Part shown: positions 2,403 through 59,453 of the stretch, piece by piece
Numbering within the stretch: the stretch's first letter is position 1
Layout: each line of letters begins with the position of its first letter
Assembly: GCA_019873625.1 (NCBI GenBank)
Contig: JAIOAW010000007.1
Coordinates: forward strand, 13,596-77,595
Length of the DNA: 64,000 nucleotides
DNA from: Chloroflexota bacterium
Lineage (GTDB): Bacteria > Chloroflexota > Anaerolineae > UBA1429
Direction of reading: 5' to 3'
Program-made: the position numbers and the translations under genes
The notes under the pieces: generated by a model
What the model saw: the letters and a program-made list of their open reading frames with translations, nothing else
The model's database searches: none
What the model was told of the DNA's origin: nothing

Positions 2403-2474
2403 TGGCGGCGACTAGATTTGAACTAGTGACCAAGGGCTTATGAGTCCCCTGCTCTGCCGCTGAGCTACGCCGCC
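2403..2474 (-). tRNA. tRNA with CAT anticodon, resembling tRNA-Ile2 (lysidine, k2CAU) more than elongator tRNA-Met
   Basis: Minus-strand sequence GGCGGCGTAGCTCAGCGGCAGAGCAGGGGACTCATAAGCCCTTGGTCACTAGTTCAAATCTAGTCGCCGCCA. It folds as a cloverleaf with a 7-bp acceptor stem, T-loop TTCAAAT and anticodon loop CUCAUAA. The D-arm, anticodon-arm and variable loop (TGGTC) closely match E. coli ileX. No CCA is encoded. Confidence 0.8.
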
Positions 2475-2482
2475 CAAAAAAG

Positions 2483-2554
2483 TAGCGGGGCCAGGATTCG
2501 AACCTGGGACCTTTGGGTTATGAGCCCAACGAGCTGCCACTGCTCCACCCCGCA
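2483..2554 (-). tRNA. initiator tRNA-fMet (CAT anticodon)
   Basis: Minus strand reads (T)GCGGGGTGGAGCAGTGGCAGCTCGTTGGGCTCATAACCCAAAGGTCCCAGGTTCGAATCCTGGCCCCGCTA. It has three consecutive G-C pairs (GGG/CCC) in the anticodon stem and a mismatched 1:72 position, both hallmarks of a bacterial initiator. It is near-identical in layout to E. coli tRNA-fMet. Coordinates are +/-2. Confidence 0.8.
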
Positions 2555-2655
2555 TCGTGCGTCCTTTAGTATAGAAGGGAGGGCGCACTTTGTCAAATCA
2601 GCGGCTCCCTTTGATGAGAGCCTTTTGAGAAAGCTCCTCCTCCAGAAATGGTGTA

Positions 2656-4758
2656 TCATTGGGCAGGTAGGGATTCTACCCGCAGCGGCACAGCCAACTC
2701 GATGGCCCCACCCTCTGCTTGCTCGGGCGCTTCTGCGCGGGCCGGCACACGTTCCCCTGTTTGCAATGTGTACATCCCTACAAGAAAGCGATACTCGCCT
2801 GGCACAAGATCTGCCGGCAATTGGAGAACGTGGCGATCTCCTACAAGTTCACCCGCTTTCCATAGGCTCGTCGGATAGTACCCGCCCAGGGGCTGTTGAT
2901 CGTGTTGACTCAACAGGCGGCTTTGTTGATCTACCAAATGAACAAACACGGTGTAATCCGCTTCGGTTGGGTTGAGCGCTCTCCAGTAAAGGGTCAGGTA
3001 CACCTTTTCACCGGCATGGGCGGGTTGTGGGTAGAGTTCATAGCCTTCCAAGCGGGCAAGGTCGCCGACCTCAGCCTGTGCCCCATTCGCAAGCGGCACG
3101 GAATCGGTGAGGCGTAGAATGCACCAATTCGCCGGGATGCCCTCGTATGGTAGAACGAGCGCCCATTTTTCAGGAAGCCGTTCGATAATGACCCAAGGGT
3201 ATTCAGGCGTGAAGTATCCGGCGAAGGCCTCCGCTCGGCGGCTAACGACTTCCCAATCCAAGATGGCATAGACCAAGCGTTTCTCTCGCGCGTAAGCAGT
3301 GATATCTTCTAGATTTTGCACCTTGGAGGGAATATCTTTGAGGCTAAGGCGCCGTTCGTAGAGCCAATTGGGCAGGGTATAACTTGGCCCCCAAAGCACC
3401 TTCGTGCCGTAAGGAGTGCCTTCCTCCAACCATTCTAGAACGGCCTGCCCACGCGTATTGGCTTCCCGATCGATGGTTACAGGATGAGCGCGGATTTGGG
3501 GCCAAGCGCGGCCAGCGGAGACGCCCGCCCAGAGGGCCAACCCTGCACCTAAAGCCAAAGGCACCTTCGCTGTAAGATTCCTGAGCCTTTCCCTGCCCGC
3601 TATCCATTGACCCCCAATTGCTCCTAATGCGTCAAGGGTAAAGAGATAGATCATCGGGTGGAACAGGATGATAAATCTTGGCCCTACGTTGCTCGCTTGG
3701 ACGAACCACCCCAGCGGGATGAGCGAGAAGATAAGCATCCCCAGAAAGAGCCAAAAAGCGAGCGCCAAATGCCCCCACTGAGCACAGATCAGCCGGCGTT
3801 TTTGCCAAAAGAGCACCAACAGCCCTAACCAGAGGGCAATCCAGACCTTTTCTCCAACCGTTCCTCGGAAAGCATCCGGTGAAATGGGGCCTAATGCGTC
3901 AAAAAGGATGCGCGTAACCTCTCGCAACCCGAACCACAAGCGGTAGGCAATATCCGCCGCGGTATGTGTGCGGAGATAGGTCTGGAGCGTCGGCGCCTCG
4001 CTTAGGTCTGCAAAATGCCGTTGAGTTGGGCTATCAAGAAAGATCTCGTGCCGATAGTTATAATTGTACAAGGGGTTACCGTATTCTTTGATATTGAACA
4101 CAAAGAGAGGTGCCCAGGCAATAAGCCAAGTCAGGCCAAAGAGCCAAACCTCGCGGCGTTGCCATACCTTCCGCCGGTAAACCTTGAGGGCAACCAAGCC
4201 AAAAGCCGGCACGATTTGGAGCGCCGTCCCTTTGGTAAAGTAGGCTAGCCCCGCCATAATCCCCGCCAAAGAGATAAGGAAGAGTGCCTTGCGCTCCGAG
4301 GAGGCCAAGCCCTCGGTCATCAGATACCAACTAGCCAAGGTGAGGAGAATAAGGAGTGGTTCCGCCATCACGCGTGATGATACCTCGAGGAACGATGCAT
4401 TGAGGCTCAATAGGCCGGCTGTCAATAATCCCACTTTGGGGCCAAACCACCGCTTTCCCAAGAGGTATACCATCACGAGGCATAGCCCGCCCAAGAAAAG
4501 GTTCAGAAACTTGGCGCGTGTGTAATAGCGCCACTCACGTTCAGCAAAAAGTGAAAGAAGGGCGGGCAAAAGGGGATGGCGTTTGCCATCGGTCAGGTCG
4601 TGGCCGTCGCGCAGGTTCAACCCCAGCGTGAGATAGGATCGTTGGTCGAACGCGCTGGAGTTCGTGTTCTGTTCAACCGCGACGATCCCCCGAACCGTAT
4701 AACTCGCCAGAAGTAAAGTGAGAAGAAACCAATAAGCCCACGGCGTCTTGGATTTCAT
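2656..4758 (-). CDS. GT-C fold membrane glycosyltransferase (GT39/ArnT/PMT-like, polyprenyl-phosphate-sugar dependent) with a large C-terminal non-membrane domain
   Basis: 700 aa. The N-terminal roughly 450 aa contain many predicted TM helices and a conserved-looking early loop (DEAFH-like region, RDGHDLTDGKRHPLLP). The C-terminal roughly 250 aa are soluble. The start codon overlaps the stop of the upstream FAD flavoprotein gene. Confidence 0.45.
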   Translation of the reverse strand: MKSKTPWAYWFLLTLLLASYTVRGIVAVEQNTNSSAFDQRSYLTLGLNLRDGHDLTDGKRHPLLPALLSLFAEREWRYYTRAKFLNLFLGGLCLVMVYLLGKRWFGPKVGLLTAGLLSLNASFLEVSSRVMAEPLLILLTLASWYLMTEGLASSERKALFLISLAGIMAGLAYFTKGTALQIVPAFGLVALKVYRRKVWQRREVWLFGLTWLIAWAPLFVFNIKEYGNPLYNYNYRHEIFLDSPTQRHFADLSEAPTLQTYLRTHTAADIAYRLWFGLREVTRILFDALGPISPDAFRGTVGEKVWIALWLGLLVLFWQKRRLICAQWGHLALAFWLFLGMLIFSLIPLGWFVQASNVGPRFIILFHPMIYLFTLDALGAIGGQWIAGRERLRNLTAKVPLALGAGLALWAGVSAGRAWPQIRAHPVTIDREANTRGQAVLEWLEEGTPYGTKVLWGPSYTLPNWLYERRLSLKDIPSKVQNLEDITAYAREKRLVYAILDWEVVSRRAEAFAGYFTPEYPWVIIERLPEKWALVLPYEGIPANWCILRLTDSVPLANGAQAEVGDLARLEGYELYPQPAHAGEKVYLTLYWRALNPTEADYTVFVHLVDQQSRLLSQHDQQPLGGYYPTSLWKAGELVGDRHVLQLPADLVPGEYRFLVGMYTLQTGERVPARAEAPEQAEGGAIELAVPLRVESLPAQ

Positions 4759-56230: not shown

Positions 56231-57246
56231 CCCTCCACCGTACGCCCGACGGCCTCGGCCACCTGGCGCGCCCGCGCCACCATCTCGGCAAAGCGCTCGG
56301 GCCGCAGAGATTGGGCGCCGTCGGAAAGGGCCTTATCGGGGTGGGGGTGCACTTCCACCTCCAGCCCATCGGCGCCGGCGGCGATGGCCGCGAGTGAGAG
56401 GGAGGTTACCCATTCCCAACGGCCGGCGGCGTGGCTCGGATCCACTACCACGGGCAGGTGTGTCGTCTCTTTGAGGACGGGTACGGCGCTGATATCCAGC
56501 GTGTTGCGGGTGTACGGCTCAAAGGTGCGGATGCCCCGTTCGCACAGGATGACGCGATAGTTCCCGTGCGAAAGGATGTACTCCGCGGACATCAACAGTT
56601 CTTCCATAGTGGACATCATCCCGCGTTTGAGGAGCACGGGCCTGCCCAGGGCGCCCAAGGCGTGAAGGAGGTTGTAATTCTGCATATTGCGGGTGCCCAC
56701 TTGGAGGATATCGGCCACCTCAGCCACCATAGGCACTTGCTCGGGGGCCATCACCTCGGTGATGACGGGCAAGCCCGTGGCCGCCTTGGCCTCGGCGAGG
56801 AGTTCCAGCCCCTTGTAGCCCAACCCTTGGAAACTGTACGGCGAGGTGCGCGGCTTGAAGGCCCCGCCGCGCAGGATGTGCGCCCCCGCCTCTTTGACGG
56901 CTTGGGCCGTCTCTAGAATCTGTTCGCGGCTCTCCACGGCGCACGGCCCGGCGATGATGACCACGCTGCGATCGCCGATGCGCACACCGTTGATGGGCAC
57001 GATGGTATTTTCGGGGTGAAAGTCTCGGCTGGCCAGTTTGTAAGGCTTGAGGATGCGGACGACCTTTTCGACGCCATCCATCAGGCGAAAGACGGAATCG
57101 TCTATGGGGCGCTCATCGCCGATGACCCCGATAATCGTCCGCTCCTGGCCCTCGGAGAGGTGTGGGCGGAACCCTAATTCGTGCACCCGGCGGACGACGG
57201 CTTGAATCTGCTCTTTGGTGGCGCCATTTTGCATCACGACAATCAT
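56227..57246 (-). CDS. aroF: 3-deoxy-7-phosphoheptulonate (DAHP) synthase, type I-beta (AroF/KDO8PS-like) with N-terminal ferredoxin-like regulatory domain
   Basis: The catalytic core (GPCAVES...[11 protein letters not shown]...) is preceded by a roughly 70-aa N-terminal domain, as in the Thermotoga/Bacillus type DAHPS. The start overlaps the aroH stop (ATGA). Confidence 0.8.
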
Positions 57247-57641
57247 CGTTCTTTCTCCTTTCCTTGTGGGGGAGGGTCTTGCCCGAGGAGGTCTGGGCGC
57301 AGGGCGCGCGCCTCACGCTGGTAAACGTGGATGATCTCATCCTGAGGTTTCTCAGTATTCCATAGGAGGAGGATGCGGATGCACCGCGGCAGGCTGCCCG
57401 GCACGGCGATTTCGACGGCATCCAACAGCGGCACGTGCTGCCAGCCCAATTCGCGGGCGGCGCGCGCGGGGAAAGCGGCGTTCAGGTCTGGGGTGGCGGT
57501 GAAGAAGGCCGCGGCGACGTCGGCGCCGGCGATGCCGTTGGCGCAGATCATCTCCTCCAACAAGGCCCTCGTCGCCCCCAGGATGAGGTCGGCTTCGTTG
57601 GCCGGGGCGGTGGTGGCCCCTCGCACACCTCGTATGGGCAT
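57243..57641 (-). CDS. aroH: monofunctional chorismate mutase, AroH class
   Basis: [12 protein letters not shown]...[53 protein letters not shown] aligns closely with B. subtilis AroH (MMIRGIRGATTV...SATPDLHAVFPAKAVREL...). The ATG at 57641 is preceded by AAAGGAG. Confidence 0.7.
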
Positions 57642-57661
57642 AGATGCTCCTTTCTGCGGCC

Positions 57662-57702
57662 GTAAAATAAAGAGAGCGTGGGGCTTGGCGCTCCACGCTC
57701 TC
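57662..57702 (-). terminator. rho-independent terminator (attenuator) immediately upstream of the aroH RBS
   Basis: Minus strand reads GAGAGCGTGG-agcgccaagcc-CCACGCTCTC followed by TTTATTTTA. It ends 20 nt before the aroH ATG. Confidence 0.6.
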
Positions 57703-57728
57703 GATGTATATGGATTCTGTGATGCTTC

Positions 57729-57908
57729 TTACCTATACCGGCCCCCGTGGAGCGCAGCAGCCCCCGCAAAGTAGCGGGGATAATAAAAGTAGAACGCAAA
57801 CAGGCTGCCCTCGAAGGAGGCACGGGCCGCAGCGGGCAAGCGCGATGCGTTGGCCATCGCACCGTTCAAAAGGTTCATCCGGTTTCGCGTTTTCGCGAGA
57901 TCAACCAT
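57729..57908 (-). CDS. putative Phe/Tyr-rich leader peptide of the aro-operon attenuator
   Basis: 59-codon ORF, MVDLAKTRNRMNLLNGAMANASRLPAAARASFEGSLFAFYFYYPRYFAGAAALHGGRYR*. Eight of eleven consecutive codons are Phe/Tyr. The ATG lies about 20 nt downstream of the predicted TSS, after AGGGTAAGGG. The stop lies 12 nt after the antiterminator arm. Shorter in-frame starts exist at codons 11 and 18. Confidence 0.5.
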   Translation of the reverse strand: MVDLAKTRNRMNLLNGAMANASRLPAAARASFEGSLFAFYFYYPRYFAGAAALHGGRYR

Positions 57909-57935
57909 CGCCCTTACCCTGCGGAAGTTGCTTTT

Positions 57936-57963
57936 AGCATATACGATTTGGCGAAAAAGTCAA
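57936..57963 (-). promoter_or_regulatory. sigma-70-like promoter of the aromatic amino acid super-operon (TTGACT-16-TATGCT)
   Basis: Minus strand reads TTGACT (plus 57958-63), a 16-nt spacer, then TATGCT (plus 57936-41). Confidence 0.4.
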
Positions 57964-58490
57964 TTTGCCGTGCCAGGGGGTTGAGGGCTATCCGGCGCCC
58001 TGAGCAGTTCCACGAGCGAGGTGCCGATCTCTCGCTCCACCCGTTGCAGGGCGCGGCACCGCGCGATGGCCCAGCGCCAGCCTTGCGCATCGGCTTCCTC
58101 CAAACTAGCGATGAGGGCCTCCCAATCACCCTCGTAGAGGTCATCTCTCAGGCGGAGGAGGGCCACATCGGGCAGGGTATCGTCGGGGGTGCAGGGGCGA
58201 AGCAGCCAGGGCGGCGCGCTCGCCAAGGTGTACCACATCGCGCAGTCATCCTCCGCACCGCGCGCCTGGCCCTCCTCGATGGCCTCGGCCAAACGGAGCA
58301 GGGCTTGAGCGGCCTGGCGCAGTAGGCCGCAGGCCCGTGGAGAACCGGACGTTGCAAAGAGCCATTGCAAGGGCGCATCGGAAGATTCCGCTTGGGCGCG
58401 CAGGGTAGCCAGGTCTGGGCCGGTTCGGCAGGCCTCATCGTAAAAGAGGAGGCCGGCGAGAAGGGCTTCTACAAGGCTTGCTGTGTTCAT
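57960..58490 (-). CDS. hypothetical protein (176 aa), no recognisable domain
   Basis: ORF with AAAGG upstream. Acidic and Leu-rich (LLRLAEAIEEG...). It ends exactly at the aro promoter. It could be a real gene or a GC artefact. Confidence 0.3.
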   Translation of the reverse strand: MNTASLVEALLAGLLFYDEACRTGPDLATLRAQAESSDAPLQWLFATSGSPRACGLLRQAAQALLRLAEAIEEGQARGAEDDCAMWYTLASAPPWLLRPCTPDDTLPDVALLRLRDDLYEGDWEALIASLEEADAQGWRWAIARCRALQRVEREIGTSLVELLRAPDSPQPPGTAN

Positions 58491-58652
58491 CGGTTGCCTT
58501 TCGGTTTCACCGCTCGCAGCGCGGCCCTTCTAAGAGGCCCTATCGCCCGAGAGGTGAGGGTGGGGGGGAGAAACTCCTCATATCGTCCTCTTGGATCGTA
58601 TCCCAAAGGGGCGACGAAACCTGTCGCCGCGTCTTCTTAGGGGCAGGGTTTT

Positions 58653-59453
58653 CTAGGGCATCGGCGGAACGTCCTCCAGAAGCCATTCCAGCAGGCGATC
58701 TACCCACGAGCGCAGATCGGGCCATTCCTCGGCCAACCCCACGCCGTGCGGCCCGCTGGGGTAGATGTGTAGCGAGACGGGCACGCCCTGGGCGCGGCAG
58801 GCCTGGGCAAACCGGAGGCTATGGGAGGCGGGCACCACGTCATCATCTGCTGTGTGAAAGATAAAGGTGGGCGGGTTAGCCGGGGAGACGTGCAGTTCGT
58901 TGCTCAGTTGGCGACGCAGGGCTTCCGGTGGCCGGGGACCAAGGAGCGCCACGGCCGAGCCGAGGTGATACTCGCGCACCATCGAGATGACGGGGTAGGC
59001 CAAGGCCAGGCGATCGGGCCGGGCGCTGTAAAGGGCCGCAAGGTCATCCAGCGGGTCGCGGTGCACATCGGGCTGGGTGGCGATGGTGCTCGCCAAATGC
59101 CCGCCGGCGCTGAAGCCCATCAGGGTGAGCGCCCCTTGGCGCAGCCCCCAACGCGCGGCTTGAGCGCGCACCAGACGCACGGCACGGGCGGCGTCGGCCA
59201 TCGGCGCGGGGTAGCGATGGGGCGCTACGCGATAAACACACACCGCCGCGAGGAGGCCGTGCCGCGCAAAGAGCCGCGCAAAGGGTTCGCCCTCGTGGGG
59301 GGCGAGCATCTCATAGCCGCCGCCGGGCAAGATGATGATAGCCTGCCCCCGAAACGCCCCCGTGGGATGATATATCTCCAATCGGGGCCGCTGCGCGGTC
59401 TTGTTGTGGGGAGACCCATCGGGCCAGAGGAAGAGCGTCTCGTCAGCGGTCAT
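58653..59453 (-). CDS. alpha/beta hydrolase (esterase/lipase family)
   Basis: GFSAGGHLA is the GxSxG nucleophile elbow. The HGGG-like oxyanion region is IIILPGGGY. The true ATG at 59453 overlaps the SDR stop. The track ORF has a 155-aa spurious extension. Confidence 0.65.
   Translation of the reverse strand: MTADETLFLWPDGSPHNKTAQRPRLEIYHPTGAFRGQAIIILPGGGYEMLAPHEGEPFARLFARHGLLAAVCVYRVAPHRYPAPMADAARAVRLVRAQAARWGLRQGALTLMGFSAGGHLASTIATQPDVHRDPLDDLAALYSARPDRLALAYPVISMVREYHLGSAVALLGPRPPEALRRQLSNELHVSPANPPTFIFHTADDDVVPASHSLRFAQACRAQGVPVSLHIYPSGPHGVGLAEEWPDLRSWVDRLLEWLLEDVPPMP

Follow-up and report, generated by a model that had tools for sequence, protein, structure and literature searches.

A predicted leader-peptide attenuator rich in tyrosine and phenylalanine codons upstream of the aromatic amino acid operon of Anaerolineae (Chloroflexota)

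Introduction

In the pheL-pheA and trpL-trpEDCBA operons of Escherichia coli, a promoter is followed by a short ORF (open reading frame) containing cognate codons, by mutually exclusive antiterminator and terminator structures and by a U-tract (PMC3082878; PMC11802643), and the stop codon of the ORF is placed so that an unimpeded ribosome blocks the antiterminator. A leader with these parts precedes the operon aroH-aroF-tyrA-aroA-aroE-aroC-aroKB-aroQ on the minus strand of a 64,000-nt stretch of contig JAIOAW010000007.1 (assembly GCA_019873625.1; hereafter the window). Comparison with related genomes and RNA folding indicate that this leader is very probably a ribosome-mediated (leader-peptide) transcription attenuator, which would tune the whole shikimate/tyrosine operon to charged tRNA-Tyr and tRNA-Phe. 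An earlier note on this DNA had proposed an attenuator of trpL/pheL-type architecture at this place, a proposal supported by the orthologous leaders, the folding and the complementarity described below.

The window leader differs from pheL and trpL in several respects. It has 59 codons as opposed to 14–15, its regulatory codons lie in the loop of the helix between regions 1 and 2 (the 1:2 helix) and not within region 1, and it has in addition a hairpin, P1, and a helix in which its own Shine–Dalgarno sequence is sequestered. The run of regulatory codons is mixed Tyr/Phe(/Trp), and the target is the common pathway plus tyrA and not a terminal branch.

In Corynebacterium glutamicum, a leader peptide containing Phe-Tyr-Phe precedes the DAHP (3-deoxy-D-arabino-heptulosonate 7-phosphate) synthase operon (aroR-aroF; Neshat et al. 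2014; PMC11802643). This system was studied experimentally and, in the account cited, was reported to respond to Phe and not to Tyr. Going by that published description of aroR, it is the closest functional analogue of the leader described here. Both have a short Phe/Tyr leader ORF before an operon opening the common aromatic pathway, and in both stalling is proposed to raise readthrough. The two occur in different phyla with no evident relationship in sequence, and the likeness is functional only. As described, aroR has a single Phe-Tyr-Phe, whereas the leaders described here have 6–9 aromatic codons, of which Tyr makes up the majority, and the operon here has eight genes, is led by an AroH-type chorismate mutase and includes tyrA. 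Since aroR-aroF provides a precedent in an actinobacterium, the principle of a Phe/Tyr leader before a DAHP synthase is, on that account, not new.

Surveys of leader-mediated regulation have covered neighbouring ground. No Phe or Tyr attenuators were found in a 2005 survey of Actinobacteria (PMC1262725), and in a survey of leader genes the Chloroflexi were too sparsely sampled to interpret (PMC4833913). The RegPrecise survey of RNA regulons lists T-boxes, not amino acid attenuators, for Chloroflexi and suggests that amino acid attenuators arose in gamma-proteobacteria with little transfer (PMC3766115). Full-text literature searches for leader-peptide attenuation in Chloroflexi, Chloroflexota or Anaerolineae, or for a Tyr-rich leader before an aro operon, found none. 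The earlier note had called Chloroflexota an unusual lineage for an attenuator type classically described in Proteobacteria and Actinobacteria; this stands in so far as no Chloroflexota description was found, although aroR-aroF, as published, makes the principle itself known. T-boxes (RF00230) are likewise cis-acting choices between terminator and antiterminator that report tRNA charging before amino acid genes. In contrast to these, no T-box motif, specifier loop or Stem I was detectable in the leader described here, where sensing would go via the translating ribosome.

Results

On the minus strand, 318 nt separate the aroH start codon from the stop codon of the gene before it, which is unannotated and encodes 176 aa. 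The elements of the proposed attenuator are listed in the order of transcription, with MFE denoting minimum free energy.

57963–57936, minus strand: sigma-70-type promoter, -35 TTGACT (57963–57958), 16-nt spacer, -10 TATGCT (57941–57936); sequence scan
57908–57729, minus strand: leader ORF, 59 codons and stop codon TAA (57731–57729); ORF reading, and gene callers in relatives
57821–57804, minus strand: region 1, distal anti-antiterminator strand, GCCUCC..GAG.GCAGC; MFE structure of the ribosome-free leader
57800–57768, minus strand: regulatory codon run, codons 37–47, FAFYFYYPRYF; eight aromatic codons in 11
57779–57762, minus strand: hairpin P1, CCCCGC (57779–57774), loop UACUUU, GCGGGG (57767–57762); folding and covariance-model alignment
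57767–57746, minus strand: region 2, 5' strand of the antiterminator, GCGGGGGCU (57767–57759) and GCGCUCCACG (57755–57746); folding
57702–57663, minus strand: intrinsic terminator, 5' arm 57702–57693, loop 57692–57682, 3' arm 57681–57672, U-tract 57671–57663; sequence and folding
57697–57676, minus strand: region 3, CGUGGAGCGC (57697–57688), AGCCCC (57685–57680) and CGC (57678–57676); inside the terminator

The promoter was the sole sigma-70-like site in 56500–59000 (one found by the scanner, 0.4 expected) and is conserved across the five close lineages described below. Transcription is predicted to start near 57929. The -10 hexamer ends 27 nt upstream of the leader ATG (57908), and a Shine–Dalgarno-like AAGGG motif (57915–57911) lies 3 nt upstream of this start codon. 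The leader peptide (57908–57729) reads MVDLAKTRNRMNLLNGAMANASRLPAAARASFEGSLFAFYFYYPRYFAGAAALHGGRYR, and its codons 37–47 are TTT GCG TTC TAC TTT TAT TAT CCC CGC TAC TTT. Promoter, ORF and the eight aromatic codons in 11 had all been predicted by the earlier note and were confirmed. Gene callers independently predict the ORF in related contigs from several assemblies, and in public sources it has either no name or the label 'hypothetical protein'. No family in Pfam or NCBIfam matched the peptide at E values up to 10. A preference of the leader for the rarer Phe and Tyr codons was considered and rejected, with TTT/TTC and TAT/TAC counts of 21/23 and 22/22 in the aro genes and of 3/2 and 3/2 in the leader.

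The terminator consists in DNA of the arm GAGAGCGTGG (57702–57693), an 11-nt loop, the arm CCACGCTCTC (57681–57672) and the tract TTTATTTTA (57671–57663). In RNA, these correspond to the 5' arm GAGAGCGUGG, the loop AGCGCCAAGCC, the 3' arm CCACGCUCUC and the U-tract UUUAUUUUA, with a folding energy of -22 to -23.5 kcal/mol. A consensus terminator scanner missed this hairpin only because its loops were limited to 8 nt. The perfect 10-bp terminator that had been predicted before aroH is therefore present, but its U-tract ends about 9 nt before the aroH Shine–Dalgarno sequence; the 20 nt given previously counts from the end of the stem.

The segment GCGCTCCACG (57755–57746, codons 52–55) is the exact reverse complement of CGTGGAGCGC (57697–57688) in the terminator 5' arm and loop, just as had been claimed. 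Folding extends this pairing to 19 pairs in three segments (57767–57746 with 57697–57676), which use the 5' arm, the loop and part of the 3' arm of the terminator, and the duplex of region 2 with the terminator region has an energy of -40.7 kcal/mol. In the folds of the window, antiterminator and terminator are mutually exclusive, as proposed, but the antiterminator is longer than the 10 bp first described. The leader stop codon begins 14 nt past the antiterminator arm, and not 12 nt as previously counted.

Two further pairings, neither of them described in the earlier note, compete for region 2. The 5' arm of P1 begins directly after Tyr43 and its 3' arm doubles as the outer part of the antiterminator. 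From the folding, P1 is predicted to act as a local anti-antiterminator that is melted by a ribosome stalled on Tyr40–Tyr43. Region 1 pairs with 57758–57741 (GCUGC.CUC...GGGGGC), overlapping the antiterminator arm and enclosing the aromatic codons. The MFE structure of the ribosome-free leader contains P1, the 1:2 helix and the terminator.

The dependence of these structures on ribosome position was computed by folding only the RNA 3' of the ribosome, with the complete terminator included and the 3' edge of the footprint at +11 to +16. With the A site on Y40–P44, the 5' arm of P1 is masked, the extended 19-pair antiterminator is the MFE structure (-43.7 kcal/mol) and the terminator is abolished. 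The permissive window of A-site positions runs from Y40/F41 to P44/R45 and holds for any footprint edge between +11 and +16. With the A site earlier or later than Y40–P44 the terminator forms, as it does with the A site on the stop codon (-23.5 kcal/mol). P1 decides the outcome in the window fold. Constrained folding of the alternative pairings, a check suggested in the earlier note, thus reveals a switch when the A site lies on Y40–P44.

From these elements we infer that the leader ORF is translated, that the ribosome stalls and is coupled to RNA polymerase, and that the system responds to amino acid supply. Transcription would begin near 57929 and a ribosome would load on the leader ORF of 59 codons. 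Under a shortage of Tyr or Phe, the ribosome would stall with its A site on F37–F47, best on Y40–Y43. The stalled footprint would melt the P1 5' arm, and the ribosome would lie between the distal strand (57821–57804) and region 2. Region 2 (57767–57746) would then be free when the terminator 5' arm and loop emerge, and the 19-pair antiterminator would allow readthrough into aroH. When Tyr and Phe are plentiful, the ribosome would pass region 2 (codons 48–55) to reach the stop codon at 57731, occluding region 2 while region 3 is made. P1 and the distal strand would later reclaim region 2, the terminator (57702–57663) would form and transcription would end. If the leader is not translated, P1 and the 1:2 helix would form, followed by termination.

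To place this leader among its relatives, a distant sample was obtained from an AroH profile scan of GTDB species genomes, which yielded 80 further loci, nearly all from Anaerolineae MAGs (metagenome-assembled genomes). The comparative set comprised 85 AroH loci. An upstream ORF with at least five aromatic residues per 11 codons (best ORF per locus) was found in 65 of the 85, compared with four of 85 when the identical search was run on the reverse complement. The Phe/Tyr-rich small ORF that the earlier note had suggested seeking in orthologous leaders is therefore widespread in this sample. Counted from the inferred start codon, the leaders are about 16 to 63 codons long (median 37), and the peptides are unrelated save for the aromatic run (for example MLKSARWFAFYFYYGFRDSVAVGGA, MKPSLSARYFYFYRYFYGTPEPAAGSGA, MRISRFYYAFFYYGYRITAAVGGA and ...GYYYYYYYARGAGG...). 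The runs contain 235 Tyr, 179 Phe and 20 Trp codons; TAC/TAT and TTT/TTC are both used and interchange freely. This free variation is the behaviour expected, from the sequences, of regulatory codons, and not of an RNA motif or a functional peptide. The Phe/Tyr character claimed for the run holds across the family, with the qualifications that Tyr outnumbers Phe and that some lineages add Trp.

A hairpin followed by a T-run lies after the leader stop codon in 65/65 leaders, mostly 5–35 nt downstream and with energies of -13 to -32 kcal/mol. A promoter of the form TTGAC[A/T/G]-17-TAnnnT (9–11 of 12 matches) stands at a set distance from the leader start in 59/65; in a looser search anywhere on the reverse strand, 17/65 matched. 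The promoters fall into two groups. In one, the -10 hexamer ends 24–31 nt before a leader ATG preceded by a Shine–Dalgarno sequence, while in the other it ends 7–10 nt before an ATG without one, which suggests that the latter ORFs are leaderless or nearly leaderless. The distance from promoter to run varies several-fold between lineages, and nothing persists but the codon run, region 2 and the terminator.

The short-spaced leaders without a Shine–Dalgarno sequence are those of loci L041, L042, L046, L047, L051, L052, L059, L062, L070, L071, L079–L083 and L089. Such leaderless-type ORFs (for example MLKSARWFAFYFYYGFR...) include several that hold Trp besides Phe and Tyr. Loci L046 and L070 (aroH at 1501), from MAGs labelled Neomarinimicrobiota and Thermotogae, have the common leader MM(M)(R/K)PKEIL...FGFYYWFSDGF and, behind it, a different terminator, which the covariance model R1 described below did not detect. 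Judging from sequence, this leader is explained either by mis-binning or by a more remote branch of this design.

Closer to the window, the leader was compared among five distinct lineages with AroH sequences 82–87 % identical and the same gene order. The ORF has exactly 59 codons in all five. Its first 28 residues diverge freely, whereas the last 31 (ASFEGSVFAFYFYYPRYFAGVAALHGGRYR) are essentially invariant, synonymous sites included. Region 1 is also nucleotide-invariant. Third codon positions of aroH, in contrast, are just 58–71 % identical between the same five genomes. This indicates that the bases of the leader's C-terminal part are constrained as RNA as well as codons, and such synonymous conservation is expected if these bases both code and join two or three alternative pairings.

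The invariant C-terminal 31 residues, together with the prediction of the ORF by gene callers in several assemblies, might also suggest a functional micro-protein, with the hairpin being an ordinary or partly efficient terminator without amino acid sensing. This appears extremely improbable. The frozen synonymous sites point to constraint at the RNA level, the peptide lacks a match to any protein family, and beyond the close family the peptides have only the aromatic run in common and vary several-fold in length. A plain terminator would need no complementary segment right after the run, as occurs in most lineages. At L031:1263–1391, moreover, the stop codon (TAA) of the leader ORF comes ahead of the conserved GCGCUGCACG/GCGCGCUGCACG and the segment is nonetheless retained, which shows that region 2 is conserved as RNA and not as the peptide 'ALHG'.

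Conservation of the 3' half at the nucleotide level, past the needs of the peptide, and the strong structure of the whole leader (z=-4.66 relative to dinucleotide shuffles) would likewise fit a ligand-, tRNA- or protein-binding switch, such as a diverged T-box, a riboswitch for aromatic amino acids or chorismate, or a protein site like those of TRAP or PyrR, in which the ORF is incidental and untranslated. T-boxes, moreover, are the amino acid RNA regulators reported earlier for Chloroflexi (PMC3766115). However, an Rfam scan of 57400–58300 with E values up to 10 gave only noise, so that identity with the T-box (RF00230) and with the Trp, His, Leu and Thr leader families was rejected. No family was found by Rfam at gathering scores in 39 related loci, and no T-box was found in AroH loci lacking a leader ORF. 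There is also no conserved aptamer-like core across lineages, given the several-fold variation between promoter and run. The run itself varies codon-wise, as in-frame TAY/TTY triplets that change in order and number, and it always lies within an ORF whose start sits at a set distance from the promoter. With the nucleotide conservation explained by the overlapping alternative pairings, a binding switch is very unlikely.

Complementarity between the segment after the run and the terminator, on which a leader-peptide attenuator would depend, was assessed across the 65 leaders without alignment. Compared with dinucleotide shuffles, the post-run segment (up to 60 nt) pairs better with its own terminator (mean z=-1.76, with 55 % of loci below -1.64; Wilcoxon P=3e-11). 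The 65 leaders were then aligned on the last aromatic codon, and the gain was calculated from MFE energies as the stabilisation that results from allowing the 5' arm and loop of the terminator to pair with RNA behind them. For A sites at positions -10 to +1, counted in codons from the last aromatic codon, this gain is -8.5 to -9.7 kcal/mol; it drops to -5.9, -4.7 and -3.3 kcal/mol at +3, +4 and +5 codons and is about -2.5 kcal/mol thereafter; at -22 codons it is -4.4 kcal/mol. The collapse past the last aromatic codon indicates that the run marks the 3' edge of a window permissive for antitermination, as the attenuation model requires. At equilibrium, with the full terminator present, about 20 of the 65 leaders lose the terminator from the MFE structure, almost always with the A site on aromatic codons. 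A nascent-transcript test, which scored pairing of the terminator 5' arm at a stage when the 3' arm is still to be made, was uninformative (0.66 for aromatic codons and 0.60 for other codons), a lone 5' arm pairing with almost anything.

Covariation was examined with a covariance model, R1, for which 12 leaders served as the seed and P1 and the terminator defined the structure; the resulting alignment holds 57 sequences and is fitted to that structure. It replaced MAFFT columns for P1, since the arms shift register between lineages. In about 50 loci R1 matched over its full length ahead of aroH, and within the window it hit a single site. In this alignment, with its fit to the structure to be borne in mind, 91.6 % of cells pair (38–62 % in slid controls) and 15/18 pairs have changed on both sides, in 118 cells compared with 33 in shuffles. 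All six pairs of P1 show changes on both sides (6/6; 81.5 % of cells paired), as do 9/12 pairs in the three terminator helices, which are 88–99 % paired. The 10-bp antiterminator, which is outside the R1 structure, is paired in 67.6 % of cells as opposed to 24–49 % in slid controls. By eye, region 2 and its terminator partner change coherently between subfamilies:

Window family: region 2 GCGCUCCACG, terminator partner CGUGGAGCGC
GRLLH group: region 2 GCUUCACG, terminator partner CGUGGAGC
SGRCFA group: region 2 GCUUCGCGC, terminator partner GCGUGGAGC
L034 group: region 2 CUGCGCU, terminator partner AGCGCAG

Two matches lie away from aroH. At L029:2162–2304, in an Anaerolineae genome, an attenuator of the same type (leader ...EEFFSYYYFAYASALGRW..., 45.9 bits) is located upstream of an ORF (2439–3317) that by eye resembles prephenate dehydratase and lies downstream of an aroH without its own leader. 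This suggests that the attenuator type is not tied to aroH. A weak R1 match at L063:99–207 (32 bits, E about 4e-4) is closely followed by an ORF of 420 aa which by eye resembles a PLP (pyridoxal phosphate) enzyme of Cys/Met metabolism, and may be just a similar terminator.

The operon downstream of the leader was identified from its ORFs and Pfam domains, which bear out the eight aro genes named in the earlier note:

57654–57639, minus strand: aroH Shine–Dalgarno sequence GAAAGGAG (57654–57647) and start codon ATG (57641–57639); sequence
57641–50043, minus strand: operon aroH-aroF-tyrA-aroA-aroE-aroC-aroKB-aroQ, with aroH first; ORFs and Pfam

The first four genes encode a chorismate mutase of the AroH type (CM_1), a DAHP synthase with an FXD domain, a prephenate dehydrogenase and an EPSP (5-enolpyruvylshikimate-3-phosphate) synthase, and the remaining four a shikimate dehydrogenase, a chorismate synthase, a fusion of shikimate kinase with DHQ (3-dehydroquinate) synthase and a type II dehydroquinase. 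The eight genes abut or overlap one another, and their products cover the shikimate pathway plus chorismate mutase and tyrA. AroH homologues place the DNA in Chloroflexota, class Anaerolineae, in agreement with the Chloroflexota-like origin considered in the earlier note. The FXD domain of the DAHP synthase is a ferredoxin-like regulatory domain, which in Thermotoga mediates feedback inhibition by Tyr and Phe. With an FXD-bearing DAHP synthase behind an attenuator, the same two amino acids would be read at the level of both enzyme and transcript.

Upstream of the leader, the 176-aa ORF (57960–58490, minus strand) has no Pfam domain, and its stop codon TGA (57962–57960) falls within the leader promoter's -35 hexamer. 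In the close relatives, a gene of 168–173 aa occupies the same place. Within the leader, a further helix, likewise absent from the earlier note, was predicted near the 5' end:

57924–57827, minus strand: 5' helix burying the leader Shine–Dalgarno sequence and AUG; MFE structure, and RNAalifold on the five lineages

In this helix, 57924–57899, which contains the leader's own Shine–Dalgarno sequence and AUG, pairs with 57855–57827 (codons ~19–27). The helix, of about 25 pairs, is retained in each of the five close lineages, whereas the ~40 nt that it encloses diverge. On this folding, the helix might confine translation of the leader to the short time before its 3' strand is transcribed, and so to a single synchronised ribosome.

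Discussion

Several points weigh against a leader-peptide attenuator and have to be set beside the evidence for it. A ribosome on the window stop codon leaves GCGCUCCACG uncovered, with a gap of 14 nt, and merely abuts region 2. The proposal that a ribosome stalled on the Phe/Tyr cluster favours the antiterminator is thus upheld by the folding, but not the proposal that a ribosome at the stop codon occludes region 2, and termination under plenty would depend on timing or on re-sequestration of region 2. From the modelling, region 2 is probably occluded while codons ~47–58 are read and is then recaptured by P1 and the distal strand. Family-wide, the distal 1:2 helix, taken as pairing between pre-run and post-run segments, is not significant (z=-0.32, P=0.06) and was rejected as a general feature. 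Covarying arms in relatives, another check named in the earlier note, were found for the terminator and P1; in the antiterminator, double changes are few (12 cells against 8.2, with 12 reached in 40/500 shuffles). The antiterminator is backed by in-register pairing and by the shuffle test, not by covariation, and few compensatory changes are expected in it if every base in region 3 has to suit two pairing partners. Transcription–translation coupling is weak in Bacillus subtilis, which bears on the coupling assumed here for Chloroflexota.

The equilibrium folds raise a further objection, in that about 45 of the 65 leaders keep the terminator as the MFE structure despite a stalled ribosome, and for these a kinetic, co-transcriptional argument is needed. 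A terminator that wins at equilibrium in most leaders, whatever the ribosome position, would also suit an attenuator without amino acid specificity. Such an element might read general translation status or NusA/NusG/Rho (polarity or coupling control of a long operon), or act at initiation through an 8-bp pairing of CUGCGGCC (57832–57825) with GGCCGCAG (57661–57654), which in the MFE structure bridges the leader and touches the aroH Shine–Dalgarno sequence. This pairing is not kept in L001 or L007, was rejected as a regulator of the aroH Shine–Dalgarno sequence and, judging from the sequences, is probably fortuitous. The leaders are enriched in the amino acids of the operon itself, Tyr, Phe and sometimes Trp (65/85, compared with 4/85 in the control), the permissive window has its 3' edge where the run ends, and the same element precedes the prephenate dehydratase-like gene in L029. 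An attenuator indifferent to Tyr and Phe therefore seems most unlikely.

For the leader-peptide attenuator, the comparisons suggest with reasonable but lesser confidence that it is the first member to be recognised of an undescribed family found throughout the class Anaerolineae. Members of this family would sense Tyr, Phe and, in some lineages, Trp by means of one mixed codon run and would control the shikimate operon as a whole, as well as, in one genome or more, prephenate dehydratase. The family would include forms led by a Shine–Dalgarno sequence and leaderless forms, as well as, in the window lineage, a helix that hides the leader's own ribosome-binding site. The operating principle is the textbook one, and what is new is the lineage and the breadth, with the same design in dozens of Anaerolineae species.

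The finding extends the known phylogenetic range of ribosome-mediated attenuation. If true, it runs against the published suggestion that amino acid attenuators originated in gamma-proteobacteria and rarely spread, and its wide conservation would imply that ribosomes closely trail RNA polymerase in deep-branching Chloroflexota, a phylum whose catalogued RNA regulators had been limited to T-boxes and riboswitches and for which the leader offers a testable reporter of transcription–translation coupling. For genome annotation, the alignment and R1 could serve as the starting point of a new RNA family. For the organisms themselves, attenuation of this kind would explain how aromatic amino acid synthesis is tuned in abundant but poorly cultured bacteria of digesters and sediments.

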